Source of the DNA: Escherichia coli
GTDB lineage: Bacteria; Pseudomonadota; Gammaproteobacteria; Enterobacterales; Enterobacteriaceae
Strand: one strand, 5' to 3'
Assembly: GCF_050920415.1 (NCBI RefSeq)
Contig: NZ_CP169309.1
Length of the DNA stretch: 64,000 nt
The translations under genes were made by a program, and so were the position numbers. The notes under the pieces are model-generated. The model saw nothing but the letters and a program-made list of their open reading frames with translations, was not told the origin of the DNA and did no database searches. Shown piece after piece: positions 1 to 44,548 of the stretch (the first letter of the stretch is position 1; each line of letters starts with the position of its first letter).

Positions 1-342
1 ACTTAGGACTAACGACGTTTCAACACAGGTTCGGGTTTACTCATCTCACTGTATCTCACATAGGATCAGATCTCGTCTGATCGTTCCCCCTGCGCTCACT
101 ACCATGGCTCTTTACCACAGCAGCCGGGGTTGTTTGGGACCGACTTCCGACAGCAGATCCCGGTGGGCCTGCCACCATCTCTTCACAAGCTTATGCTTAT
201 TACATGCAAAACGTCCCGTTTTGCATCTTTGTGCCTACGGCACACGATGATCTTTCCCTGTACCACCTCCTCAGGAAGTGGTTTAAGGTTAATAACAAAA
301 ATACCAATCATTTTAATAAAATATGACGAGTATTTATTTTCA

Positions 343-615
343 TTATATTTTAAAGCATCCTAGCCCCTGCGATGCTCGCCATCGTTTTAACTCATCAACA
401 ATCCCTTGGGGACTATCTTCTCTATCTTCAGATGGATAGAATATCAAATCACTACCATCTGGGTGCTGAGTGATTCTAATAAAATGACTTACAAGATCAT
501 CAATAAACTTCGACAATTTATCGCCATGCAATTCCTCAGGTGGTTCAAAAAAATTATTTAGAAGTTCGATAAATTCATCTTCCGTATAATCTTCTAGATT
601 ATTTTTAAACTCCAT
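343..615 (-). CDS. Colicin-DNase-type immunity protein (Im7/Im9-like), 90 aa; candidate cognate immunity for the VgrG-fused DNase
   Basis: Translation MEFKNNLEDYTEDEFIELL...HPDGSDLIFYP...DSPQGIVDELKRWRA shares, from memory, the DYTE-EF, HPSGSDLIYYP and DSPSGIV..WRA motifs of Im9/Im7. AGGAGG Shine-Dalgarno 6 nt before the ATG; start lies 14 nt after the vgrG stop; AT-rich codon usage. Confidence 0.85.
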   Translation of the reverse strand: MEFKNNLEDYTEDEFIELLNNFFEPPEELHGDKLSKFIDDLVSHFIRITQHPDGSDLIFYPSEDREDSPQGIVDELKRWRASQGLGCFKI

Positions 616-629
616 TACTACCTCCTTTT

Positions 630-3600
630 TTATTTATGCAATCGTATGTGGTTTTTAGGTGTGTTTACTCTAAGATTATCAATATCATAGACTTCTCCCC
701 CATATTGGATTTCGTCAATATGATGAATTTCAAATGTACCTCGCCCCCCAACTCTTTGTCTTGATATAGTATAAGGTGCGCGTCCACGCTTTATCAACGT
801 TTGGTTAGCTTTATTAAATTGGCTCAATAGTTCTGGACATTCACCTACAGCAGTCCAGAAAGCTGCCCTGAATTCATCAAAATTGTTAAATGACTTACTC
901 CGAAGTTTATTTGCGACCTGTTGTGGAATTGGCACTCCTAAGCTTTTCCCCGCCTGCGACAGCCATCTTCCTGTACCTGCTAACACCTCCCCCTTACCTG
1001 TTACTGTTCCCGCTTCATCCCTTGCAGTTTTCAGATACACATATATTGGTGTTAATTCCGCACCGTCAGGAAAGACAAGTATCCAGTCATTAAAATTTCG
1101 CTCCTCCGGCATTGGAGAAGGCGGCGTGGTGATATCTGTTTTTTCATCGGGTATCGGATTAACATAAATATCAGGTAGATCAACTGGTTCGACAGGAGTT
1201 CCGGTGTGTATGGGCTGCTCTGAACCTTCTGGCTTTGCAGGCGTCCAAAATATTTTTGGTCCCGAATCAGACACAGGTGAAAATTCATAACGGGAAAATT
1301 CCTTATTCCACTCCATCAATGCTACCCGAACACCTTCAAGTTCCGAACCTGCGGGTGTGTGGTATCCGTATGTTCTCAATTCACCAGCAGTATTCCGCTG
1401 AAAGAGAAAGCGCGCCCGCGTAGCTGCCGTCTCTCCAGATTGCGCTTTACGACGTAGCTCATTTTCGAGCCACTGTTCATCCCGTCCAGGAACTTTATCA
1501 CTACCTTCACCGGCAGGTATTGGATATAGTGCTGATACTAGAACACCAAGGGCTGGCACCGTTTTTGATACACTTAAAAAACCTTCTCCACCCCATGCCC
1601 CTAATGTTCCCCATACGCGAGTTAAAACTCCCGCAGACTGTTCCGCCGCTAGTGGAACCGCAACACCCGCTGACGCAACTGTCATTTCCCCCGTCAGTGA
1701 GTTCGCTCCTGAAGTTTTTTTTGCTGACTGCGCAAGTTGCTCCACTTCATCGTCATGATAGTGTGTACCATAGCCGCAACAGTCATCCTCCACTGGCTGG
1801 GCAAATAGAGCCATATCACCAAAATGTTTCGATGGCTCCATGGTCGTACCAGCATCAGTGCAGCCTTTCTCCTTCAGACAAGATTTTGCGTATACAGGAA
1901 TTACCAGTTCATCTGAATCGTCCTTGTCTTCTTCTCCACCTTCTGATTCATCCTCATCACTAGGCTCTCCGTCATTCCCGCCGCCAGCATTCCCTCTGTC
2001 ATACTGCTCGTCAGCCAGAGCGTCCATAACTGCCGGTTGTAGTGTATTTATCGGCGTCCCCGGACTGCCCCCGCCATTCAGATTTATTTTCGGTCCGACA
2101 ATATCCACACCACCAGAATGAACGACCACAAACGAGCCCCCCACCTTCAGGCTTATCCGGCTGCTGCTCTCCAGCACGATATCCCCGTCCACCTTGATCC
2201 CCAGCGCGCCACTCACCTTCTCCGCCAGGTCGCCCTTCACCTCCAGACTGTGCGTTCCCTCCACCAGACTGATATGGTTCCCCGTCGTCTTATGCTCCTG
2301 CTTCCCTTCCACCGTCACTTTACGGTCGTTTCTGACATACAGGCCGTCATCGTGACTCACGCTCACCGTCCGGTCATTCGTCACCTTCAGCGTCTGGTCA
2401 TTACGTACCGTTATGCGCCGGTCGTTCGCCACCGTGATACTCTGGTCGTGACCCCCTTCTTTTCTGGTGCCGACCTCAACCGTCTGCCCCTTCACCACCC
2501 TTATCTTCTGGTCGTTACCGATGGTCTCCGTATGGTCATGCTTCACGTCCGTCCGCCGGTCGTTAAGCACCTCCGTGTCCATGTTCTTCTGCGCGTGGAT
2601 ATACACCTGCTCACTGTCCGTCGCATCCTCGAAACGCAGTTCATTAAAGCCGCTTCCTTTATAGGTCTTCGAGCGGATGGTCATCTGCGTCCGCGTGCCC
2701 GGTAAATCCCCCGGTGAACGGTTGTCCTCATGGTATGTCCGCCCCGTCACAATGGGCTGGTCCGGGTCGCCGTTCAGAAAGTCCACTATCACTTCCTGAC
2801 CCACACGCGGTATCGCCAGATTGCCGAACCCCGGTCCCGCCCATGCCTGCGACACCCGTATCCAGCATGAACTCTCCTCCGTCATCCCGTGATAACGGTC
2901 CCAGTGAAACTTCACCCGTACCCGGCCATGTTCGTCGCAGAATATCTCCTCGCCCTTCGGCCCGGTCACAATGGCACTCTGCGGGCCGTCCACCTTCGGC
3001 TTCGGCAGCGGCGCGTGACGCCACGTCCTGTCTGCCGGTATCACCTCAAACTGATTGCTCAGTGTCGTCCCTTCACCGTGACTCCCGTGCAGCGCCTGCG
3101 GCTGTTCTCCCCGCAGTGTGCTTCCCACAACCTGCCATTCCCGGTTCAGCGTCCCTGACGGATGGCCCGTCAGCCGGAACCGCGTTCCCGGCCACAGTCG
3201 CGCCGTGTTACACACCCCGCTCGCCGTCTCCGCCCCGTTCCGCCACCCTTCCGTCTGGTAACGCGCAAAATCCTGGCCATGCTGCTCATCCTTGAAACGC
3301 CCCGGATAATCAAATATCTCGTACTGCGTTCCCTGCCCGTTCAGGCTCTCCCCGTCATGGCTGTAGTACCCCGGCCACCCCGGCGTTTTGAACGTATAAT
3401 CCTGCGTCTCCACCGACGCCACGCTTATCTGCGCACGGTAACGGAAGTCGCTGATGTACTCTGTCGTGCCTCCGGTCGTGGTATTCGGGTTAAACGCCAG
3501 CGCCCCCATTCCCGTCAGCCCCGCCACGTCATCACACACCGCCAGCTTCTGTTCCGGCCCGTCCTGACTGCAGCGTTCATAAAAGAAGATACCTTCCTCC

Positions 3601-4085
3601 GCCCACAGCCGGGTCAGGAATGTCAGGTCGCTCTCCCCGTACTGCACGCAGAACTCCCGCGCCGGGTGCGCCTCATAGAACAGCGGCATCCACGCCGTCA
3701 CCCCGTTCTCTCTCAGAAGCTGTGCTGATATCGTCCCTATGTCCTGCTGCTGGAAGATACGGAAGTTCTGCCGTAACCCTGCCCGCCACAGCGGCGGGCT
3801 GATGCTCAGGGAATAACGCATCTGCCAGTCGTTGTTCTCACCGAGCTGCACCTCCGTCACGATACCGCTGACGTAACGCTGCGGGATATCACCCTGCCAG
3901 ACCGTCAGCACCGCGCTCTTCTCCAGAAAATCCTCCGCCGTCAGGTCAGACAGCCCGCTGGCGATATCCACATCCAGGATGAACGGCGTGCAGTGGTGCT
4001 GGTACAGACGGAAGCTCACCACCGCCGTCGCCATCTCCACGATACCGGCCACCGACAGCGTGAAACGTAATCCTTCTGAGGACAT
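630..4085 (-). CDS. vgrG: Evolved VgrG (T6SS spike, gp27/gp5-like core) with about 430 aa C-terminal extension ending in a colicin E9-like HNH DNase domain
   Basis: Six-frame ORF 630..4118 (1162 aa). N-terminus MSSEGLRFTL... is VgrG-like, so the likely start is the ATG at 4085 with a GGGG motif upstream (ORF-track alternative 4118). The middle has gp5-type repeats (VANDRRITVRNDQTLKVTNDRTVSV...). The C-terminus ...FDEFRAAFW...RQRVGGRGTFEIHHIDEIQYGGEVYDIDNLRVNTPKNHIRLHK matches the colicin E9/E7 DNase H-N-H motif by eye. Confidence 0.88.
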   Translation of the reverse strand: MSSEGLRFTLSVAGIVEMATAVVSFRLYQHHCTPFILDVDIASGLSDLTAEDFLEKSAVLTVWQGDIPQRYVSGIVTEVQLGENNDWQMRYSLSISPPLWRAGLRQNFRIFQQQDIGTISAQLLRENGVTAWMPLFYEAHPAREFCVQYGESDLTFLTRLWAEEGIFFYERCSQDGPEQKLAVCDDVAGLTGMGALAFNPNTTTGGTTEYISDFRYRAQISVASVETQDYTFKTPGWPGYYSHDGESLNGQGTQYEIFDYPGRFKDEQHGQDFARYQTEGWRNGAETASGVCNTARLWPGTRFRLTGHPSGTLNREWQVVGSTLRGEQPQALHGSHGEGTTLSNQFEVIPADRTWRHAPLPKPKVDGPQSAIVTGPKGEEIFCDEHGRVRVKFHWDRYHGMTEESSCWIRVSQAWAGPGFGNLAIPRVGQEVIVDFLNGDPDQPIVTGRTYHEDNRSPGDLPGTRTQMTIRSKTYKGSGFNELRFEDATDSEQVYIHAQKNMDTEVLNDRRTDVKHDHTETIGNDQKIRVVKGQTVEVGTRKEGGHDQSITVANDRRITVRNDQTLKVTNDRTVSVSHDDGLYVRNDRKVTVEGKQEHKTTGNHISLVEGTHSLEVKGDLAEKVSGALGIKVDGDIVLESSSRISLKVGGSFVVVHSGGVDIVGPKINLNGGGSPGTPINTLQPAVMDALADEQYDRGNAGGGNDGEPSDEDESEGGEEDKDDSDELVIPVYAKSCLKEKGCTDAGTTMEPSKHFGDMALFAQPVEDDCCGYGTHYHDDEVEQLAQSAKKTSGANSLTGEMTVASAGVAVPLAAEQSAGVLTRVWGTLGAWGGEGFLSVSKTVPALGVLVSALYPIPAGEGSDKVPGRDEQWLENELRRKAQSGETAATRARFLFQRNTAGELRTYGYHTPAGSELEGVRVALMEWNKEFSRYEFSPVSDSGPKIFWTPAKPEGSEQPIHTGTPVEPVDLPDIYVNPIPDEKTDITTPPSPMPEERNFNDWILVFPDGAELTPIYVYLKTARDEAGTVTGKGEVLAGTGRWLSQAGKSLGVPIPQQVANKLRSKSFNNFDEFRAAFWTAVGECPELLSQFNKANQTLIKRGRAPYTISRQRVGGRGTFEIHHIDEIQYGGEVYDIDNLRVNTPKNHIRLHK
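633..1004 (-). other. HNH (beta-beta-alpha-metal) colicin-type DNase toxin domain, the last ~124 aa of VgrG
   Basis: HH...N...H arrangement (EIHH, NTPKNH, RLHK) and a preceding KSLGVPIPQQVANKLRSKSFNNFDEFRAAFW segment, collinear with the colicin E9 DNase domain as remembered. About 38% GC by eye, versus about 60% for the VgrG core. Confidence 0.75.
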
Positions 4086-4260
4086 ATAAACCCCATAGCT
4101 ACCGCACTCATGGTGCAAACCATACGGGCTTATAAGAAAGGCTTAAGTGAGATATCTGCCAGATAGCAACTATTAGGAAAATATTTATATATATTTCATG
4201 AATATATATTTCGGTTGGTATAACGGTGTCTAAATATTCCTCTGAACATCTTCCTGATAC

Positions 4261-4924: not shown

Positions 4925-6597
4925 TGGCTGCGCAAGGGTTCTTACTGATTGCCACGTTTTTACTGGTGTTAATGGTGCTGGCGCGCCCTTTGGGCAGTGG
5001 GCTGGCGCGGCTGATTAATGATATTCCTCTTCCTGGTACGACGGGCGTTGAGCGCGTACTCTTTCGTGTACTCGGCGTCTCTGGCCTTGAGATGAACTGG
5101 AAGCAGTATCTCTCTGCCATTCTCGGCCTGAACATGCTGGGGCTGGCGGTGCTGTTTTTTATGTTGCTCGGTCAGCACTATCTACCGCTTAACCCGCAGC
5201 AGTTACCGGGGCTGTCGTGGGATCTGGCGCTGAATACTGCCGTCAGCTTTGTCACTAATACCAACTGGCAATCTTATAGCGGTGAAACCACATTAAGCTA
5301 TTTCAGCCAGATGGTGGGCTTAACGGTACAAAACTTTCTTTCTGCCGCCAGCGGGATTGCGGTGATTTTTGCCCTCATTCGTGCATTTACCCGCCAGAGC
5401 ATGAGCACACTCGGCAATGCCTGGGTCGATCTGCTACGCATCACGTTATGGGTGTTAGCCCCGGTGGCGTTGTTGATCGCGCTGTTTTTTATTCAACAAG
5501 GTGCGTTGCAAAACTTTCTTCCCTATCAGTCGGTTACGACTGTTGAAGGGGCGCAACAGCTGTTACCAATGGGTCCGGTGGCTTCTCAGGAAGCGATCAA
5601 GATGCTCGGCACTAATGGCGGCGGTTTCTTTAATGCCAACTCATCGCATCCGTTTGAAAACCCGACCGCACTGACCAACTTCGTGCAGATGCTGGCGATC
5701 TTCTTGATCCCAACAGCGCTGTGCTTTGCCTTTGGTGAAGTGGCAGGCGATCGCCGCCAGGGGCGCATGTTGCTGTGGGCGATGTCAGTGATTTTTGTCA
5801 TCTGCGTAGGCGTGGTGATGTGGGCAGAAGTTCAGGGTAATCCTCATCTGCTGGCGCTGGGTGCGGACAGCAGCATCAATATGGAAGGTAAAGAGAGCCG
5901 TTTCGGCGTGCTGGTCAGTAGCCTGTTTGCGGTCGTGACTACGGCGGCTTCCTGTGGCGCGGTGATTGCGATGCATGATTCGTTTACCGCTCTCGGTGGC
6001 ATGGTGCCGATGTGGCTGATGCAAATTGGTGAAGTGGTATTCGGCGGTGTCGGTTCTGGTCTTTACGGCATGATGCTGTTCGTTCTGCTGGCGGTGTTTA
6101 TTGCCGGGCTGATGATTGGTCGTACACCGGAATATCTGGGTAAAAAAATCGACGTACGTGAGATGAAACTGACTGCACTGGCGATTCTGGTCACCCCGAC
6201 GCTGGTGCTGATGGGCGCGGCGCTGGCAATGATGACCGACGCCGGACGTAGCGCCATGCTCAACCCTGGCCCGCATGGTTTTAGCGAAGTGCTGTACGCC
6301 GTGTCATCCGCCGCTAACAACAACGGCAGCGCCTTTGCCGGCTTAAGCGCCAACTCTCCGTTCTGGAACTGTTTACTGGCGTTCTGCATGTTTGTCGGTC
6401 GCTTCGGGGTGATTATCCCGGTGATGGCGATTGCCGGTTCGCTGGTGAGTAAAAAGAGCCAGCCCGCCAGCTCCGGCACGCTACCAACGCACGGCCCGCT
6501 GTTTGTTGGTCTGTTGATCGGCACCGTGTTGCTGGTTGGCGCACTGACCTTTATCCCTGCCCTGGCGCTTGGTCCGGTGGCGGAATATCTCTCCTGA
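4924..6597 (+). CDS. kdpA: KdpA, K+-translocating ATPase channel subunit
   Basis: [16 protein letters not shown]...; the ORF-track 5' extension (4780) is rejected in favour of the ATG overlapping the kdpF stop. Confidence 0.95.
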
Positions 6598-6619
6598 TGA
6601 TATTGAGTGAGCACTGAAT

Positions 6620-8668
6620 ATGAGTCGTAAACAACTGGCGCTATTCGAACCAACACTTGTCGTTCAGGCGCTGAAAGAAGCGGTGAAAAAATTAAACCCG
6701 CAGGCGCAATGGCGTAATCCAGTGATGTTTATCGTCTGGATCGGCAGTCTGCTGACCACCTGTATTAGCATCGCGATGGCAAGCGGCGCGATGCCTGGCA
6801 ATGCGCTGTTTAGCGCGGCAATTAGCGGCTGGCTGTGGGTCACCGTACTGTTCGCTAATTTCGCCGAGGCGCTGGCAGAAGGCCGCAGTAAAGCGCAGGC
6901 CAACAGTCTGAAAGGGGTGAAAAAAACTGCCTTTGCCCGCAAGCTGCGTGAGCCGAAATATGGCGCTGTGGCAGACAAAGTTCCTGCCGATCAACTGCGT
7001 AAAGGCGATATCGTACTAGTAGAAGCTGGCGATATTATCCCCTGCGATGGTGAAGTCATTGAAGGGGGTGCATCGGTCGATGAAAGCGCCATCACTGGGG
7101 AATCGGCACCGGTGATCCGTGAATCCGGTGGCGATTTTGCCTCCGTCACTGGCGGCACGCGTATTCTTTCTGACTGGCTGGTGATTGAGTGCAGCGTTAA
7201 CCCCGGTGAGACATTTCTGGATCGGATGATCGCGATGGTGGAAGGCGCGCAGCGACGTAAAACGCCGAACGAGATTGCCCTGACCATTCTGCTGATTGCC
7301 CTGACTATCGTCTTTTTACTGGCAACCGCCACGCTGTGGCCGTTTTCCGCGTGGGGCGGTAATGCAGTCAGCGTAACGGTACTGGTGGCGCTGTTGGTCT
7401 GTCTGATCCCAACCACTATTGGCGGCCTGTTGTCAGCGATCGGCGTCGCCGGAATGAGTCGGATGCTGGGCGCGAATGTGATTGCCACCAGCGGACGTGC
7501 AGTTGAAGCGGCGGGCGACGTGGACGTCCTGCTGCTGGATAAAACCGGTACCATCACCCTCGGTAACCGTCAGGCATCAGAGTTTATCCCCGCGCAGGGC
7601 GTAGAGGAAAAAACGCTGGCCGACGCAGCACAACTGGCTTCGCTGGCCGACGAAACGCCGGAAGGCCGCAGTATTGTGATCCTCGCCAAGCAGCGTTTTA
7701 ACCTGCGCGAGCGCGATGTGCAGTCGCTTCACGCCACTTTTGTACCGTTTACTGCGCAAAGTCGAATGAGCGGGATCAATATCGACAACCGTATGATCCG
7801 TAAAGGTTCTGTCGATGCCATTCGCCGCCATGTTGAGGCTAACGGTGGTCACTTCCCTGCCGATGTTGATCAAAAAGTCGATCAGGTTGCGCGTCAGGGG
7901 GCCACGCCGTTGGTGGTGGTGGAAGGTTCCCGTGTGCTGGGCGTTATTGCGCTGAAAGATATCGTCAAAGGCGGTATTAAAGAGCGCTTCGCCCAGCTGC
8001 GCCAAATGGGCATAAAAACGGTGATGATTACTGGCGATAACCGTCTGACTGCCGCCGCCATTGCTGCGGAAGCGGGCGTCGATGATTTTCTCGCTGAAGC
8101 GACACCGGAGGCCAAGCTGGCATTGATCCGTCAGTATCAGGCGGAAGGCCGTTTGGTGGCGATGACCGGCGACGGCACCAACGATGCTCCGGCGCTGGCG
8201 CAGGCAGATGTCGCGGTGGCGATGAACTCAGGTACTCAGGCGGCGAAAGAAGCGGGCAATATGGTGGATCTCGACTCTAACCCGACCAAGTTGATCGAGG
8301 TGGTGCATATTGGCAAACAGATGCTGATGACCCGTGGCTCGCTGACCACCTTCAGCATTGCCAACGATGTGGCGAAATACTTCGCCATTATTCCGGCGGC
8401 GTTCGCGGCAACGTATCCGCAGTTAAATGCGCTGAACATCATGCGCCTGCATTCGCCCGACTCCGCCATTCTCAGTGCGGTCATTTTCAACGCCTTGATT
8501 ATCGTCTTTTTGATTCCCCTGGCGTTAAAAGGCGTGAGTTATAAACCGCTTACCGCTTCTGCCATGTTGCGCCGTAACTTATGGATTTACGGTCTGGGTG
8601 GGCTGCTGGTGCCGTTTATTGGTATCAAAGTCATTGATTTACTGCTGACCGTTTGCGGTCTGGTGTGA
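6620..8668 (+). CDS. kdpB: KdpB, P-type ATPase catalytic subunit
   Basis: 682 aa; DKTGTIT phosphorylation motif and [11 protein letters not shown] motif present. Confidence 0.95.
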
Positions 8669-9249: not shown

Positions 9250-11926
9250 CGAACCCTTACGTCCCGACCCCGATCGTCTGCTGGAACAAACTGCCGCGCC
9301 GCATCGGGGGAAGCTGAAAGTTTTTTTCGGTGCCTGTGCAGGCGTCGGGAAGACCTGGGCGATGCTGGCAGAAGCCCAGCGACTGCGGGCGCAAGGGCTG
9401 GATATTGTGGTTGGCGTGGTTGAAACTCACGGACGGAAAGATACCGCCGCAATGCTGGAAGGGCTGGCTGTTCTGCCGCTAAAACGCCAGGCGTACCGTG
9501 GGCGGCATATCAGCGAGTTTGATCTCGATGCCGCCCTCGCCCGCCGTCCGGCGCTGATCTTAATGGACGAACTGGCGCACAGTAATGCGCCAGGTTCTCG
9601 TCATCCTAAACGCTGGCAGGACATCGAAGAGCTGCTGGAAGCGGGCATTGATGTTTTCACGACCGTCAACGTTCAGCATCTGGAAAGCCTGAATGATGTG
9701 GTCAGTGGCGTCACCGGAATTCAGGTGCGGGAAACCGTGCCCGATCCCTTTTTTGATGCTGCCGACGACGTAGTGCTGGTGGACTTGCCCCCGGACGATC
9801 TGCGTCAACGGCTGAAAGAAGGCAAAGTCTATATTGCCGGGCAGGCGGAGCGCGCCATTGAACATTTTTTCCGCAAAGGCAATCTGATCGCTCTGCGAGA
9901 ACTGGCACTGCGCCGTACTGCCGATCGCGTAGATGAACAAATGCGCGCCTGGCGGGGGCATCCTGGCGAAGAGAAAGTCTGGCACACGCGCGACGCGATT
10001 CTTTTATGTATTGGGCATAACACCGGCAGTGAGAAACTGGTCCGCGCGGCGGCGCGGCTGGCATCGCGCCTTGGGAGCGTCTGGCACGCGGTGTATGTTG
10101 AAACCCCTGCCCTGAATCGCTTACCGGAGAAAAAACGTCGGGCAATTCTCAGCGCCTTACGTCTGGCGCAGGAGCTGGGCGCGGAGACGGCAACACTTTC
10201 TGATCCGACGAAAGAGAAAGCCGTAGTGCGTTATGCCCGTGAACATAATCTCGGCAAGATTATTCTCGGTCGCCCGGCCTCGCGCCGCTGGTGGCATCGG
10301 GAAACGTTTGCTGACCGACTGGCGCGCATCGCCCCCGATCTCGATCAGGTGCTGGTCGCGCTTGATGAACCACCCGCCCGCCCGCTTAATAACGCGCCGG
10401 ATAGCCGCTCTTTTAAAGACAAGTGGCGGGTACAGATTCAGGGGTGCGTGGTTGCCGCCGCGTTATGTGCCGTTATCACCTTAATTGCCATGCAGTGGCT
10501 GATGGCGTTTGATGCCGCCAACCTGGTGATGCTGTATCTGCTTGGCGTGGTGGTGGTGGCGCTATTTTATGGACGCTGGCCTTCGGTGCTTGCTACCGTC
10601 ATTAATGTGGTGAGTTTCGATCTCTTTTTTATCGCCCCACGCGGCACGCTCGCCGTCTCTGATGTGCAATATCTGCTGACCTTCGCGGTGATGTTAACCG
10701 TCGGGCTGGTGATCGGGAACCTTACTGCTGGCGTGCGTTATCAGGCGCGGGTAGCCCGTTACCGCGAACAACGCACACGGCACTTATATGAAATGTCGAA
10801 AGCTCTGGCTGTGGGCCGCAGTCCGCAGGACATCGCCGCCACCAGCGAACAATTTATTGCTTCCACGTTTCATGCCCGCAGCCAGGTGTTGTTGCCCGAT
10901 GACAACGGTAAATTGCAGCCGTTGACACATCCGCAAGGAATGACGCCGTGGGAAGATGCCATCGCGCAGTGGAGTTTTGATAAAGGCCTGCCTGCGGGCG
11001 CGGGCACCGATACGTTACCCGGTGTGCCATACCAGATTTTGCCGTTAAAAAGCGGCGAGAAAACCTACGGACTGGTGATGGTGGAACCGGGGAATCTGCG
11101 CCAGTTGATGATCCCGGAACAGCAACGCCTGCTGGAGACGTTCACGCTGTTAGTTGCCAATGCCCTGGAACGCCTGGCGCTGACCGCCAGCGAAGAACAG
11201 GCGCGGATGGCAAGCGAACGAGAACAGATCCGCAACGCCCTGCTGGCGGCGCTTTCGCATGATTTACGCACGCCGCTTACGGTGCTGTTCGGTCAGGCAG
11301 AAATCTTAACGCTCGATCTGGCAAGCGAAGGATCGCCTCACGCCCGCCAGGCCAGCGAGATTCGTCAGCATGTGCTGAACACGACCCGACTGGTGAATAA
11401 TCTACTGGATATGGCGCGAATTCAGTCCGGCGGCTTTAATTTGAAGAAAGAGTGGTTAACGCTGGAAGAAGTGGTCGGTAGCGCGCTACAAATGCTGGAA
11501 CCGGGATTATCATCGCCCATCAACCTGTCTTTGCCAGAACCGCTGACCTTAATCCACGTTGATGGGCCACTCTTTGAACGGGTGCTGATTAATCTGCTGG
11601 AGAACGCGGTGAAATACGCGGGTGCGCAGGCCGAAATTGGTATCGATGCCCACGTTGAGGGCGAAAATCTACAACTGGATGTCTGGGATAACGGCCCCGG
11701 TCTTCCACAAGGCCTGGAGCAGACGATATTCGATAAGTTTGCTCGTGGAAATAAAGAGTCGGCAGTGCCGGGCGTCGGGCTTGGGCTGGCAATTTGTCGG
11801 GCGATTGTGGATGTACACAGCGGCACCATTACCGCGTTCAACCGACCGCAAGGTGGTGCCTGTTTTCGTGTTACACTTCCCCAGCAAACAGCCCCTGAAC
11901 TTGAAGAATTTCATGAGGATATGTGA
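9242..11926 (+). CDS. kdpD: KdpD sensor histidine kinase
   Basis: [16 protein letters not shown]...; start overlaps the kdpC stop (gATGAATAAcg); HisKA motif LSHDLRTPL and four transmembrane segments visible. Confidence 0.95.
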
Positions 11927-12600
11927 CAAACGTTCTGATTGTTGAAGATGAACAGGCTATTCGTCGCTTTCTGCGCACAGCGCTGGAGGGCGATGGGATG
12001 CGCGTTTTTGAAGCCGAAACGCTGCAACGGGGGCTGCTGGAAGCGGCGACTCGTAAGCCAGATTTGATTATTCTCGATCTCGGCCTGCCAGACGGTGATG
12101 GGATTGAGTTTATCCGCGACCTGCGCCAGTGGAGCTCGGTGCCAGTAATTGTGCTTTCCGCCCGCAGCGAAGAGAGCGACAAAATCGCCGCGCTGGATGC
12201 CGGAGCGGATGATTACCTGAGTAAGCCATTTGGTATTGGCGAATTACAGGCCCGTCTGCGCGTTGCTTTACGTCGCCACTCCGCCACCACCGCGCCCGAG
12301 CCGCTGGTGAAATTTTCTGATGTTACCGTCGATTTAGCCGCCCGCGTGATTCACCGCGGTGAGGAAGAGGTGCATCTCACCCCGATTGAATTCCGCCTGC
12401 TGGCGGTGCTGCTCAACAATGCCGGAAAAGTGCTCACCCAGCGCCAGCTTCTCAACCAGGTGTGGGGACCAAACGCGGTCGAACACAGCCACTATTTGCG
12501 TATTTATATGGGACATCTGCGACAAAAACTGGAGCAAGATCCCGCCCGCCCTCGCCATTTTATTACTGAAACCGGTATTGGGTATCGGTTTATGCCATGA
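11923..12600 (+). CDS. kdpE: KdpE response regulator (OmpR family)
   Basis: GTG start overlapping the kdpD stop; [17 protein letters not shown]...; 225 aa. Confidence 0.95.
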   Translation: MTNVLIVEDEQAIRRFLRTALEGDGMRVFEAETLQRGLLEAATRKPDLIILDLGLPDGDGIEFIRDLRQWSSVPVIVLSARSEESDKIAALDAGADDYLSKPFGIGELQARLRVALRRHSATTAPEPLVKFSDVTVDLAARVIHRGEEEVHLTPIEFRLLAVLLNNAGKVLTQRQLLNQVWGPNAVEHSHYLRIYMGHLRQKLEQDPARPRHFITETGIGYRFMP

Positions 12601-12645
12601 ATTATTATTCAATAAATACGCTTAACTAATTATTAATTCATTATT

Positions 12646-12679
12646 AAACCTGCCCCGAAAATTATTATTTGGCAGGTTT
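12646..12679 (+). terminator. Putative kdp operon terminator
   Basis: aaacctgcc / ggcaggttt 9-bp stem with a long AT-rich loop; weak T tract. Confidence 0.45.
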
Positions 12680-12874
12680 AATTTCTTAATGAAAATATAA
12701 CCTACGAAATTACAACATTTAAACAACAAAACAGCATCTAATATGGCGCCACTCTTAATTAACGATTTATTATTTTGGGCGTGATCGTTTTTTGTTGATC
12801 TTCTTCACAGTTTATAGCCTTTTCATGGATAGAATAACTCTACCTTCAACTGACACAGCAAAAGGTAAAGGTAA

Positions 12875-12979
12875 ATGGAAAATAATAACCGCTTAATGCC
12901 TCATATAAGGCGGACAACCCATATCATGAAGTTTGCCCATCGTAATAGTTTTGACTTTCATTTCTTTAATGCCCGTTAG
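12875..12979 (+). CDS. speFL: SpeFL, 34-codon ornithine-sensing arrest/leader peptide of the speF operon
   Basis: ATG...TAG ORF translating MENNNRLMPHIRRTTHIMKFAHRNSFDFHFFNAR, about 300 nt upstream of speF; not in the ORF track (below 60 aa). Differs at two or three N-terminal positions from my memory of the K-12 peptide. Confidence 0.7.
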   Translation: MENNNRLMPHIRRTTHIMKFAHRNSFDFHFFNAR

Positions 12980-13289
12980 TCTTCTGACTAAAGGGCACCC
13001 CAGCGTACAGGTCTCCCTGACTTTAAGCATTACAGGTTAATACCTGTATCCCTCGGTGCTCATATACTGCTAACCCTTTTAAACTCTAAATAATTCAAGT
13101 CGCAGCACTAGCAACTTGAAGTATGACGAGTATAGCCAGTTACCGGGCTGGTCTGGGTTATTGCATCTGCAAAAAGCAAACTACTGATTTATTTATCAGC
13201 GGTGGAGTTTTGCTTTTTTTCCGGCGTGATCGATTTCTCCTTTGAGAAATTGAGGACCTGCTATTACCTGAAATAAAGAGATGAACAAA

Positions 13290-15488
13290 ATGTCAGAATT
13301 AAAAATTGCCGTTAGTCGTTCTTGCCCGGATTGTTTTTCCACTCATCGTGCATGCGTGAATATTGACGAAAGTAATTATATTGACGTTGCCGCCATTATT
13401 TTGTCGGTCAATGATGTTGAACGTGGAAAACTCGATGAAATAGACGCTACTGGCTATGGCATTCCTATTTTTATTGCAACGGAAAATGAAGAACGTGTAC
13501 CAGCAGAATATCTGCCACGTATTACTGGTGTCTTCGAGCATTGCGAATCACGGAAAGAATTTTACGGACGTCAGTTAGAAACCGCCGCCAGCCATTATGA
13601 AACGCAGCTGCGCCCGCCCTTCTTCCGCGCACTGGTCGATTATGTCAATCAGGGCAATAGCGCTTTTGACTGCCCGGGTCATCAGGGGGGTGAGTTTTTC
13701 CGTCGCCATCCGGCAGGCAATCAGTTCGTGGAATATTTTGGCGAAATGCTCTTCCGCTCCGACTTGTGTAATGCCGACGTAGCAATGGGCGATCTACTGA
13801 TTCATGAAGGTGCGCCATGCATTGCACAGCAACATGCAGCTAAAGTGTTTAATGCCGATAAAACGTACTTTGTTTTAAACGGCACCTCCTCTTCCAACAA
13901 AGTGGTTTTAAACGCCCTGCTAACACCGGGTGATCTGGTGCTGTTTGACCGCAATAACCATAAGTCTAACCACCACGGGGCCTTGCTACAGGCTGGTGCA
14001 ACACCGGTTTATCTGGAAACAGCACGTAACCCGTATGGTTTTATCGGTGGTATTGATGCGCACTGCTTCGAAGAAAGTTATCTGCGTGAACTGATTAAAG
14101 AAGTTGCACCGCAACGGGCAAAAGAGGCGCGTCCGTTCCGCCTCGCTGTGATTCAGTTAGGCACCTACGACGGTACTATTTATAACGCCCGCCAGGTGGT
14201 GGATAAAATCGGTCATCTGTGTGACTACATCCTGTTTGACTCAGCATGGGTCGGCTATGAACAGTTTATTCCGATGATGGCGGACTGTTCGCCGCTGCTA
14301 CTGGAGCTTAATGAGAACGATCCGGGTATTCTGGTTACGCAATCTGTACATAAGCAGCAGGCTGGTTTTTCCCAGACTTCACAAATTCATAAAAAAGACA
14401 GCCATATCAAAGGGCAACAGCGTTATGTCCCGCACAAACGCATGAACAACGCCTTTATGATGCACGCCTCCACCAGCCCGTTCTATCCGCTGTTTGCCGC
14501 ACTGGATATTAACGCCAAAATGCATGAAGGTGTCAGCGGTCGTAATATGTGGATGGATTGTGTGGTTAACGGTATTAATGCCCGCAAATTGATCCTCGAT
14601 AACTGTCAGCACATTCGTCCGTTCGTTCCTGAACTGGTGGATGGTAAACCCTGGCAATCGTATGAAACAGCGCAAATTGCGGTTGATCTGCGCTTCTTTA
14701 AATTTGTACCCGGTGAGCACTGGCATTCTTTTGAAGGTTACGCAGAGAATCAATACTTTGTCGATCCGTGCAAACTGTTGCTGACAACTCCTGGCATTGA
14801 TGCACGTAACGGCGAATATGAAGCATTCGGTGTACCCGCGACGATTCTTGCTAACTTCCTGCGCGAAAATGGCGTAGTGCCGGAAAAATGCGATCTTAAC
14901 TCCATCCTCTTCCTGCTGACTCCGGCAGAAGATATGGCCAAACTGCAGCAACTTGTTGCCCTGCTGGTACGCTTCGAAAAACTACTGGAAGCTGATGCGC
15001 CTCTGGCGGAAGTATTGCCTTCCATCTACAAACAGCATGAAGAGCGCTACGCCGGTTATACCCTGCGTCAGTTGTGCCAGGAAATGCATGATTTGTATGC
15101 CCGTCACAACGTGAAACAACTGCAAAAAGAGATGTTCCGTAAGGAACACTTCCCACGCGTCAGCATGAATCCACAGGAAGCCAACTATGCCTACTTACGC
15201 GGTGAAGTGGAACTGGTTCGTCTGCCGGATGCAGAAGGCCGTATCGCAGCCGAAGGTGCGCTTCCTTATCCTCCGGGTGTGCTGTGTGTTGTTCCGGGTG
15301 AAATCTGGGGTGGTGCTGTTCTGCGTTACTTCAGCGCTCTGGAAGAAGGGATCAACCTGCTGCCAGGTTTTGCACCGGAGCTGCAGGGTGTCTATATCGA
15401 AGAACATGATGGTCGTAAGCAAGTTTGGTGCTATGTCATCAAGCCTCGTGATGCGCAAAGCACCCTGTTGAAAGGGGAAAAATTATGA
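13290..15488 (+). CDS. speF: Inducible ornithine decarboxylase
   Basis: MSELKIAVS...; second in-frame ATG chosen (9-nt spacing from AAAGAG); PLP-dependent decarboxylase signature. Confidence 0.95.
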   Translation: MSELKIAVSRSCPDCFSTHRACVNIDESNYIDVAAIILSVNDVERGKLDEIDATGYGIPIFIATENEERVPAEYLPRITGVFEHCESRKEFYGRQLETAASHYETQLRPPFFRALVDYVNQGNSAFDCPGHQGGEFFRRHPAGNQFVEYFGEMLFRSDLCNADVAMGDLLIHEGAPCIAQQHAAKVFNADKTYFVLNGTSSSNKVVLNALLTPGDLVLFDRNNHKSNHHGALLQAGATPVYLETARNPYGFIGGIDAHCFEESYLRELIKEVAPQRAKEARPFRLAVIQLGTYDGTIYNARQVVDKIGHLCDYILFDSAWVGYEQFIPMMADCSPLLLELNENDPGILVTQSVHKQQAGFSQTSQIHKKDSHIKGQQRYVPHKRMNNAFMMHASTSPFYPLFAALDINAKMHEGVSGRNMWMDCVVNGINARKLILDNCQHIRPFVPELVDGKPWQSYETAQIAVDLRFFKFVPGEHWHSFEGYAENQYFVDPCKLLLTTPGIDARNGEYEAFGVPATILANFLRENGVVPEKCDLNSILFLLTPAEDMAKLQQLVALLVRFEKLLEADAPLAEVLPSIYKQHEERYAGYTLRQLCQEMHDLYARHNVKQLQKEMFRKEHFPRVSMNPQEANYAYLRGEVELVRLPDAEGRIAAEGALPYPPGVLCVVPGEIWGGAVLRYFSALEEGINLLPGFAPELQGVYIEEHDGRKQVWCYVIKPRDAQSTLLKGEKL

Positions 15489-35283: not shown

Positions 35284-35360
35284 GGCTACGTAGCTCAGTT
35301 GGTTAGAGCACATCACTCATAATGATGGGGTCACAGGTTCGAATCCCGTCGTAGCCACCA
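35284..35360 (+). tRNA. metT: tRNA-Met (elongator, CAU)
   Basis: ggctacgtagctcag...ctcataat... cloverleaf ending CCA; first gene of the seven-tRNA operon. Confidence 0.85.
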
Positions 35361-35368
35361 TCTTTTTT

Positions 35369-35453
35369 GCGGGAGTGGCGAAATTGGTAGACGCACCAGA
35401 TTTAGGTTCTGGCGCCGCAAGGTGTGCGAGTTCAAGTCTCGCCTCCCGCACCA
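35369..35453 (+). tRNA. leuW: tRNA-Leu (UAG), long variable arm
   Basis: gcgggagtggcgaaattggtag...anticodon loop tttaggt...CCA; 85 nt. Confidence 0.85.
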
Positions 35454-35476
35454 TTCACCAGAAAGCGTTGTACGGA

Positions 35477-35551
35477 TGGGGTATCGCCAAGCGGTAAGGC
35501 ACCGGTTTTTGATACCGGCATTCCCTGGTTCGAATCCAGGTACCCCAGCCA
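35477..35551 (+). tRNA. glnU: tRNA-Gln (UUG)
   Basis: tggggtatcgccaagcggtaagg...anticodon loop ttttgat...CCA. Confidence 0.85.
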
Positions 35552-35585
35552 TCTTCTTCGAGTAAGCGGTTCACCGCCCGGTTAT

Positions 35586-35660
35586 TGGGGTATCGCCAAG
35601 CGGTAAGGCACCGGTTTTTGATACCGGCATTCCCTGGTTCGAATCCAGGTACCCCAGCCA
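35586..35660 (+). tRNA. glnW: tRNA-Gln (UUG), second copy
   Basis: Identical to the previous tRNA-Gln (UUG). Confidence 0.85.
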
Positions 35661-35675
35661 TCGAAGAAACAATCT

Positions 35676-35752
35676 GGCTACGTAGCTCAGTTGGTTAGAG
35701 CACATCACTCATAATGATGGGGTCACAGGTTCGAATCCCGTCGTAGCCACCA
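35676..35752 (+). tRNA. metU: tRNA-Met (elongator, CAU), second copy
   Basis: Identical to the first tRNA-Met. Confidence 0.85.
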
Positions 35753-35800
35753 AATTCTGAATGTGTCGAATGCGTTCGGCAAATTCACAAACCAATTTGT

Positions 35801-35875
35801 TGGGGTATCGCCAAGCGGTAAGGCACCGGATTCTGATTCCGGCATTCCGAGGTTCGAATCCTCGTACCCCAGCCA
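35801..35875 (+). tRNA. glnV: tRNA-Gln (CUG)
   Basis: tggggtatcgccaagcggtaagg...anticodon loop ttctgat...CCA. Confidence 0.85.
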
Positions 35876-35912
35876 ATTTATTCAAGACGCTTACCTTGTA
35901 AGTGCACCCAGT

Positions 35913-35987
35913 TGGGGTATCGCCAAGCGGTAAGGCACCGGATTCTGATTCCGGCATTCCGAGGTTCGAATCCTCGTACCCCAGCCA
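35913..35987 (+). tRNA. glnX: tRNA-Gln (CUG), second copy
   Basis: Identical to the previous tRNA-Gln (CUG). Confidence 0.85.
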
Positions 35988-43470: not shown

Positions 43471-44379
43471 ATGCAATTACGTAAACCTGCCACAGCAATC
43501 CTGGCCCTGGCGCTTTCCGCAGGCCTGGCACAGGCAGATGACGCCGCCCCGGCAGCGGGCAGTACGCTGGACAAAATCGCCAAAAACGGTGTGATTGTCG
43601 TCGGTCACCGTGAATCTTCAGTACCTTTCTCTTATTACGACAATCAGCAAAAAGTGGTGGGTTACTCGCAGGATTACTCCAACGCCATTGTTGAAGCAGT
43701 GAAAAAGAAACTCAACAAACCGGACTTGCAGGTGAAATTGATTCCGATCACCTCACAAAACCGTATTCCGCTGCTGCAAAACGGCACTTTCGATTTTGAA
43801 TGTGGTTCTACCACCAACAATGTCGAACGCCAAAAACAGGCGGCTTTCTCTGACACTATTTTCGTGGTCGGTACGCGCCTGCTGACCAAAAAAGGCGGCG
43901 ATATCAAAGATTTTGCCGACCTGAAAGACAAAGCCGTAGTCGTTACTTCCGGCACTACCTCTGAAGTTTTGCTCAACAAACTGAATGAAGAGCAAAAAAT
44001 GAATATGCGCATCATCAGCGCCAAAGATCACGGTGACTCTTTCCGCACCCTGGAAAGCGGTCGTGCCGTTGCCTTTATGATGGATGACGCTCTGTTAGCC
44101 GGTGAGCGAGCGAAAGCGAAGAAACCAGACAACTGGGAAATCGTCGGCAAGCCGCAGTCTCAGGAAGCCTACGGTTGCATGTTGCGTAAAGACGATCCGC
44201 AGTTCAAAAAGCTGATGGATGACACTATCGCTCAGGTGCAGACCTCCGGTGAAGCGGAAAAATGGTTTGATAAGTGGTTCAAAAATCCAATTCCGCCGAA
44301 AAACCTGAACATGAATTTCGAACTGTCGGACGAAATGAAAGCACTGTTCAAAGAACCGAATGACAAGGCACTGAACTAA
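43471..44379 (+). CDS. gltI: Glutamate/aspartate periplasmic binding protein
   Basis: MQLRKPATAILALALSAGLAQA signal peptide; AAGGAG Shine-Dalgarno; the ORF-track 5' extension is rejected. Confidence 0.95.
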   Translation: MQLRKPATAILALALSAGLAQADDAAPAAGSTLDKIAKNGVIVVGHRESSVPFSYYDNQQKVVGYSQDYSNAIVEAVKKKLNKPDLQVKLIPITSQNRIPLLQNGTFDFECGSTTNNVERQKQAAFSDTIFVVGTRLLTKKGGDIKDFADLKDKAVVVTSGTTSEVLLNKLNEEQKMNMRIISAKDHGDSFRTLESGRAVAFMMDDALLAGERAKAKKPDNWEIVGKPQSQEAYGCMLRKDDPQFKKLMDDTIAQVQTSGEAEKWFDKWFKNPIPPKNLNMNFELSDEMKALFKEPNDKALN

Positions 44380-44384
44380 TTACA

Positions 44385-44536
44385 AGAACCAGGGGCGGAA
44401 ATTCCAGCCCTCTCGATTGTTACGTAGCACGGACAGACTATACGCCTGATGGTCGTTCCCCATCGGGCCTGAAAACCGCAATACGCTGGGTAACAATCTT
44501 CGAGGGTAGCAGTTAACGCTGCTACCCTCTTTTTTC
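44385..44536 (+). ncRNA. sroC: Probable SroC sRNA (gltI 3'UTR / gltI-gltJ spacer-derived), ending in an intrinsic terminator
   Basis: Position and strong terminator (gagggtagcag/ctgctaccctc stem plus T7) match where SroC is remembered to lie; the 5' end is not determinable by eye. Confidence 0.45.
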
Positions 44537-44548
44537 TGGAGTAGATTT

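Follow-up and report, generated by a model that had tools for sequence, protein, structure and literature searches.

Group II intron E.c.I9 in the ISEc1 end beside a VgrG–DNase immunity gene of Escherichia coli MFDS1022581

INTRODUCTION

The RNA of a group II intron folds into a ribozyme and splices out with the help of the intron's own protein; the intron recognizes its target by base pairing and reverse-splices into it, and for the intron E.c.I9 of Escherichia coli the targets are new copies of the insertion sequence (IS) ISEc1. The experimental model RmInt1 of Sinorhizobium meliloti (class D/IIB3), an intron with an endonuclease-less reverse transcriptase (RT)/maturase, homes into the insertion sequence ISRm2011-2 and moves at replication forks, where it reverse-splices into single-stranded DNA.

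E.c.I9 was described by Leclercq and Cordaux (PLoS One 2012, PMC3522654) as a class D intron (the label is given in their Table S2) that lies 'in a Rhs region' and is full length in strain ATCC 8739. In that study an intron took the name of a Zbase reference if its nucleotide identity to it was 90% or more, and the Rhs IS (ISEc1-5) was given as the target of both E.c.I2 and E.c.I9, at two different positions (the site of E.c.I9 is described as 'Rhs IS at another position'). The same authors reported E.c.I9 fragments of 193 bp in O157 and other strains and of 159 bp in BL21/REL606 (PMC3522654). E.c.I9 in ISEc1 is an ordinary arrangement that has already been described, the targeting of ISEc1 having been published in 2012; a search for H-rpt (another name of ISEc1) and group II introns together found no paper in the literature covered.

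Here we analyse the left edge of a window of 64,000 nt (the whole stretch of DNA under study) from E. coli MFDS1022581, where 342 nt had been left unassigned downstream of an immunity gene; the original prediction suggested a remnant of a further toxin/immunity cassette, a recombination scar or a structured RNA. Our joint reading, of which we are very nearly certain, is that a decaying E.c.I9 copy occupies its known homing site in ISEc1, and that the junction with the immunity cassette is probably the product of a recombinational deletion. The window agrees with the MFDS1022581 chromosome (NZ_CP169399.1) from position 3486661 onward in all 9342 bases that were compared. Positions are those of the window; positions marked L001 refer to the MFDS1022581 stretch that comprises the window start and the sequence on its left.

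RESULTS

The flank matches the 5' part of E.c.I9

An Rfam search of the region, as the original prediction had proposed, did find a structured RNA: in a permissive scan of positions 1–1000, the group II intron model RF01999 (Table 1) was the only one to score above its gathering threshold. Weak matches to Pseudomonadales-1 (22.6 bits, gathering score 68), the plastid psbA UTR, miRNA/snoRNA models and CrcZ were all sub-threshold and are taken as chance. The 245 nt of the intron inside the window have five differences from the E.c.I9 of ATCC 8739 (98% identical), and by this similarity we identify positions 1–245 as intron nt 1–245, which make up the 5' part of domain I of this mobile group II element. 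On these comparisons, the structured RNA that had been suggested is the beginning of a group II intron ribozyme; it is read from the minus strand and belongs to a known mobile element rather than being a new RNA.

Table 1. Features at the left edge of the window
Feature	Position	Strand	Evidence or remark
E.c.I9 5' part, domain I	1–245	-	Rfam RF01999; identity to the ATCC 8739 reference
Domain-I core, Rfam group-II-D1D4-2 (RF01999)	59–176	-	93.1 bits (gathering 36), E = 7e-20, full model 1–118
Reported hairpin, proximal domain-I stem-loop (intron nt 20–42)	204–226	-	10-bp stem, GGA loop
5' splice-site consensus GUGUG (GUGYG)	241–245	-	read from the sequence; same 5' end in all copies examined
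ISEc1 (H-rpt) left end, outermost 15 bp, CAGGGAAAGATCATC; intron 5' exon	246–260	-	contiguous in intronless ISEc1
Putative IBS1	246–251	-	within the 5' exon
AT-rich 3' tail of the immunity cassette, with 8-bp hairpin (263–281)	261–342	-	co-occurrence with the immunity gene
Colicin/pyocin DNase immunity gene	343–615	-	Pfam Colicin_Pyocin, E = 1.5e-32
VgrG + S-type pyocin + colicin-type DNase fusion	630–4118	-	single 1162-aa ORF

The intron runs leftward out of the window, from L001 9245 to 7360 (1886 nt in MFDS1022581), and its domains V/VI are found in the same element outside the window (L001 7360–7435, minus strand; RF00029, 62.8 bits, gathering score 40). We used the ATCC 8739 copy as the E.c.I9 reference (1887 nt; NC_010468, 2411599–2413485, coordinates from Table S3 of PMC3522654). 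In a full-length alignment the MFDS1022581 copy has 68 substitutions and one deletion relative to it, and this identity (96.3% over 1887 nt) lies above the 90% of the naming rule. We found no evidence against the identification as E.c.I9. The fragments known from other strains are recovered at the same place: O157 strains match query positions 2–210, of which 15 nt are exon and 193 nt intron, the latter equalling the published fragment, and BL21 matches query positions 3–176 (159 nt of intron) at 242497–242671, where a fragment had been listed at 242507–242665 (NC_012892; PMC3522654, Table S3).

The protein encoded by the ATCC 8739 intron is intact (440 aa), scores 424 bits against TIGR04416 (cut-off 300) and has the Pfam domains RVT_1 and GIIM but no endonuclease domain; E.c.I9 carries its bacterial class D label from the published table, and the lack of an endonuclease domain agrees with this. 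In MFDS1022581 the corresponding gene, ltrA (group II intron reverse transcriptase/maturase; L001 7437–8758), is frameshifted: a 1-nt deletion at reference nt 1224 breaks the RT frame immediately before the YADD motif, so that the first RT ORF, in which RVT_1 is found (first half of the copy), ends in EIPCAVMQMMD and a stop codon, and the second reads LCRYADDG. Because of this frameshift the copy would be without a reverse transcriptase of its own, and judging by its sequence it is decaying. Its predicted ligated-exon junction is CAGGGAAAGATCATC joined to TAACGCTGC.

The intron lies in the left end of ISEc1

The 15-mer next to the intron, joined to the 3' exon, is contiguous in the intronless ISEc1 copies of 5335 out of 5426 E. 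coli genomes (these copies are annotated as ydcC, 'ISAs1-like element ISEc1 family transposase'). The intron-side module has matches in 2563 of the 5426 genomes; every one of them ends at window position 260, outside which the sequence varies with the locus. The left end CAGGGAAAGATCA is an imperfect inverted repeat of the right end CAGGGCAAGATTA (given as reverse complement). An intact ISEc1 has 1291 bp (for example L005, 2501–3791), and the intron site lies 15 bp inside it, in the untranslated leader, with 127 nt between it and the transposase ATG downstream; the insertion site reads CAGGGAAAGATCAYS, then the intron, then TAACGC… or AGAAGT…. The intron has the same orientation as the ISEc1 transposase and the vgrG–immunity genes. 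By these matches 246–260 is the left end of ISEc1, which is the known homing site of E.c.I9. An IS end was exactly what the original prediction had named as evidence against its own proposal.

The rest of the IS is degraded in MFDS1022581: a truncated ISAs1 transposase ORF is left (NF033564, 152.7 bits against a cut-off of 70), the right end is kept (L001 ~6643), ~560 bp have been lost internally and ~732 of the 1291 bp remain. Beyond the right end comes the core gene ybgA. Extending the contig leftward, as had been proposed, thus yielded the rest of the intron, the truncated ISEc1 and ybgA, with no toxin or immunity gene; that the island continues past the window start holds for only ~2.4 kb of mobile-element DNA, and not for any further cassette.

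The immunity cassette and its tail

Between the ISEc1 end and the immunity gene lies a short AT-rich tail (Table 1). The 82-nt tail accompanies the immunity gene in no more than four genomes, spread over three chromosomal loci; in four out of four it adjoins the ISEc1 left end at the same base. The tail has an 8-bp hairpin of its own (263–281, minus strand; CCACUUCC-UGA-GGAGGUGG), 2 nt outside the ISEc1 end and with no T run after it; a change in ET350 makes its stem perfect, and one in RMDEC465 breaks a pair.

Upstream of the immunity gene, the effector ORF is uninterrupted on the minus strand, with a probable start at MSSEGLRF… and the Pfam domains Phage_GPD, Phage_base_V, Gp5 trimerisation/Gp5_C, Pyocin_S and Col-Pyo_DNase. 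RefSeq splits the same DNA into a pseudogene (tssI, 'missing C-terminus') and a separate S-type pyocin protein; from its reading frame and domains it looks like an intact 'evolved' VgrG with a DNase toxin. Elsewhere in the window, seven tRNA genes (35284–35984) and the sRNA sroC (44375–44537, 174.8 bits) are ordinary core-genome features.

The absence of a convincing ORF from 1–342 stood up to re-examination: the longest ORFs touching the region have 77, 48, 42, 40 and 40 aa, and the 77-aa and 48-aa ORFs have no match to an NCBIfam family. The search for additional small immunity-like ORFs or displaced toxin fragments came back empty, both in 1–342 and to the left of the window. We therefore give practically no chance to the idea that 1–342 is a degraded orphan toxin/immunity cassette of the kind typical downstream of T6SS/Rhs effectors. 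Arrays of this kind do occur in relatives (N96 has a glycoside-hydrolase cassette at the same locus, and in ATCC 8739 there are Rhs fragments upstream of its E.c.I9 copy), but in MFDS1022581 no ORF of the region exceeds 77 aa or matches a family, no such cassette lies left of the window, and intron, IS end and cassette tail account for all of 1–342. As far as homology can tell, the remnant of a further cassette is already refuted.

The hairpin and the composition of the flank

The hairpin that drew attention to the flank is real and perfect, but its stem has 10 bp rather than the 9 bp first reported (arms 204–213 and 217–226, 10 nt each, 100% complementary, with a 3-nt loop). As minus-strand RNA it folds with -11.8 kcal/mol against a shuffle mean of -2.9 (z = -5.75; none out of 200 shuffles was as stable), and the minus strand gives fold z-scores of -3.6 for 1–245 as a whole and -4.5 for 246–345. 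It is identical in seven of the eight E.c.I9 copies examined; in ATCC 8739 an A at nt 34 leads to a C.A mismatch and a weaker fold (-6.7 kcal/mol).

A hairpin equally far from GUGUG recurs in two introns that are 71–76% identical to E.c.I9; its loop contains GGA and, in the Methylobacter intron (L019), is GGA itself. The stem sequences differ across the three introns: AUGCAAAACG/CGUUUUGCAU, CCGCAUA/UAUGCGG and CUGCAUA/UACGCAG (the last with one mismatch). A position that is kept with changed stems is, at the level of these three sequences, what one would expect if the hairpin is a structural part of domain I, and the domain-I core next to the hairpin has eight compensatory pairs among E.c.I9 and the two related introns. 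RNAalifold, applied to the three intron lineages, did not call the hairpin, the automatic alignment being out of register there; the hairpins of the three lineages were compared by folding each singly.

The GC content is 0.48–0.56 over 1–250, 0.28 over 251–350 and 0.26–0.43 across the immunity gene. A shift in composition relative to the immunity gene had been noted, and it is real, but the break is near 250, where the boundary between intron and IS explains it, and not at the gene end at 343. We looked for terminator-like sites (a GC-rich stem with a T run) on either strand of 1–800 and found none; a promoter scan of the same 800 nt gave one promoter-like site, inside the effector gene.

It could be argued that hairpin and flanking structure form an RNA element that works for the immunity gene independently of the intron, as a 3' UTR stabiliser, a terminator or an sRNA: from the immunity stop codon to the intron there is no canonical terminator, so that a read-through RNA would end in stable structure (the z-scores of -3.6 and -4.5 above), and intron 5' stubs persist in ~47% of E. 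coli genomes. We consider this very improbable. Whatever DNA lies upstream, the hairpin is always part of the intron, and the three other genomes with the same immunity gene have no intron at that position; vertical inheritance of orthologous copies accounts for the persistence of the stubs (PMC3522654), and the only other Rfam match to be set against the intron, Pseudomonadales-1, is the one that falls far below its gathering score.

The junction compared with strain N96

In the sister strain N96 the island is likewise found, and it too lies at the ybgA–ybfA/kdp locus. Two segments correspond: L001 7027–9260 is 99.4% identical to N96 5650–7884, and L001 9246–13158 is 99.1% identical to N96 11018–14930. 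The ~3.1 kb in between (N96, L010 7885–11017), which separate the immunity gene from the full intron in N96, are absent from MFDS1022581; they comprise an intronless ISEc1 remnant beside the immunity gene, an orphan pair and a 144-nt E.c.I9 stub. The orphan pair consists of genes for a glycoside hydrolase family protein and a hypothetical protein, and is effector/immunity-like. The full E.c.I9 copy of N96 is intact; the MFDS1022581 copy differs from it by six substitutions and the 1-nt frameshifting deletion.

At the junction, the three other genomes with the immunity cassette have an intronless ISEc1, in which …ATC or …ACC is followed by AGAAGTAC, and MFDS1022581 has …ATC, the intron and TAACGC. 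Its 5' exon (…GATCATC) is the variant found beside the same immunity gene elsewhere, there followed by AGAAGTAC; its 3' exon (TAACGC…) is the variant of the full intron of N96, there preceded by …GATCACG. By this comparison the 5' and 3' exons of MFDS1022581 come from different ISEc1 variants, i.e. the flanks are chimeric.

The putative EBS1 loop of the intron is CGUGAU (intron nt 264–273, outside the window), an assignment made from its loop position and partial matching, with no clean co-variation in the six copies examined. It forms four Watson–Crick pairs and one G.U pair with the resident AUCAUC, with a C.C mismatch at -1, and it pairs perfectly with the AUCACG of N96 and 2017-02-2CC. A complementarity search against the 5' exon gave no convincing site for EBS2, and EBS3 was not located. 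Candidate EBS3 positions at nt 245, 283 and 316, which vary between intron variants, were dropped, because with them the intact copy of N96 would not pair with the 3' exon it carries.

Given the chimeric exons, the mismatch of the putative EBS1 and the additional 3.1 kb of N96, the junction probably arose by recombinational deletion between repeated ISEc1-end/intron sequences and not by homing in place. Under such a scheme the ancestral island would have been N96-like, and recombination between the repeated ISEc1-end/intron sequences would have deleted ~3.1 kb including the orphan cassette; starting from such an ancestor, one crossover alone would leave …ACG, not …ATC, at the 5' exon, and a route through the stub or two events would be needed. 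The 'recombination scar' of the original prediction holds to this extent, with chimeric ISEc1 flanks and 3.1 kb more in N96 at the exact junction.

The alternative is that E.c.I9 arrived by ordinary retrohoming into the ISEc1 beside the immunity gene and that N96 gained its 3.1 kb later. The insertion point is indeed the canonical E.c.I9 site, and positions -1 to -3 of the 5' exon are diverse among copies (ATC, ACG, ATG, ACT, GCC), so the pairing may be tolerant of the C.C mismatch that the putative EBS1 leaves at -1 with AUCAUC and that otherwise counts against homing in place. A further point against it is that the orthologous ISEc1 in the three other cassette genomes has AGAAGTAC after the 15-mer, whereas TAACGC follows the intron of the window. 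The RT of the MFDS1022581 copy is now dead, which also speaks against retrohoming, although decay after insertion is possible. Taken together, we regard retrohoming at this place as possible but unlikely, and deletion as the probable origin of the junction.

Distribution of the intron and its 5' stubs

The module of ISEc1 end and intron 5' part is found in ~47% of E. coli genomes (2563 out of 5426), mostly as stubs of 144 to ~590 nt near Rhs/VgrG cassettes: at least 80% of the intron is present in only 83 out of the 5426 genomes, and ~2480 have 5' stubs only. Stub lengths are 144, 159, 193, 460 and 589 nt (e.g. L017 2321–2619, N96 (L010) 7870–8042, L004 3760–4260 and L002 3657–4260). The 144-nt and 159-nt stubs have a complete ISEc1 left end directly after them, and their ends look like the result of nested ISEc1 insertion or of IS-mediated adjacent deletion. 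In nearly all of the RefSeq records matched, the annotation of the ISEc1-end/intron region is 'none'. The MFDS1022581 chromosome has E.c.I9 matches at three places, two of them in addition to the copy described here.

Outside E. coli, the searches located the intron on a plasmid of E. albertii and in the genome of Escherichia sp. MOD1-EC7003. The latter has at least six distinct ISEc1-end/intron junctions in one genome (L011–L016), all at contig ends, with variation in the last 2–3 nt of the 5' exon (ATC, ACG, ACT, GCC). Among species representatives, a scan recovered the intron 5' end from just two sources, an Escherichia sp. genome and a 'Collinsella' MAG contig. This 2.6-kb contig of 'Collinsella sp.' (JAIJJM010000460.1, L017) carries E. 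coli-type ISEc1 and an E.c.I9 stub with 98–99% identity, and is probably a mis-binned Escherichia contig.

DISCUSSION

The assignment fills a flank that had been left without one: the island ends in mobile-element debris, not in further toxin/immunity genes. The arrangement of 1–342 is of little importance by itself, the element being already known, but it yields a rule for annotation: where the DNA after E. coli Rhs/VgrG immunity genes is GC-richer and free of ORFs, it often consists of the 15-bp ISEc1 end and the E.c.I9 5' part. The comparison with N96 would illustrate, in addition, how an orphan effector cassette can be deleted via repeated IS/intron ends.

A broader idea is that the module of ISEc1 end and intron 5' part serves as portable homology that drives the gain and loss of T6SS/Rhs effector–immunity cassettes, its stubs perhaps being co-opted as structured 3' ends of the immunity transcripts that come from upstream. 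We offer it as a speculation with rather long odds; if portable homology of this kind were at work, the MFDS1022581 junction would be an example caught in the act, with a 3.1-kb orphan cassette lost relative to N96.

Among described elements, the closest to the MFDS1022581 copy is E.c.I9 of ATCC 8739. Both have the GUGUG 5' end, domains V/VI and an RT plus maturase ORF without an endonuclease domain, and both lie 15 bp inside the ISEc1 left end in Rhs/VgrG islands. They differ in that the RT of MFDS1022581 is frameshifted by the 1-nt deletion, its EBS1 loop is the variant UUUCGUGAUA (CAUGAUGAUA in the reference), its hairpin is perfect where the reference has the C.A mismatch, and its ISEc1 flanks are of different variants. 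ISEc1/H-rpt itself (ISAs1 family; ydcC, ybfD and ybfL in K-12) is the IS of Rhs loci, and its left terminus is what we find at window positions 246–260; the MFDS1022581 element differs from it in being interrupted by the intron after nt 15 and in its internal loss.

RmInt1 resembles E.c.I9 as an endonuclease-less intron that homes into an IS, and differs in its host and its target IS. Two further introns can be compared at the nucleotide level. The one in E. coli MS1050 (L018 748–~2640), which is probably E.c.I2, is 71% identical to E.c.I9, and the one on a plasmid of Methylobacter sp. YRD-M1 (L019 1736–~3550) is 76% identical to it over nt 83–571. Like E.c.I9, both have the 5' end GUGUGCCGYAGG and the domain-I core, and both lie inside ISAs1-family elements; they interrupt the transposase reading frame, whereas E.c.I9 sits in the 5' untranslated end of the IS. 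The MS1050 and methanotroph cases suggest, from their sequences, a clade-wide association of these introns with insertion sequences of the ISAs1 family.
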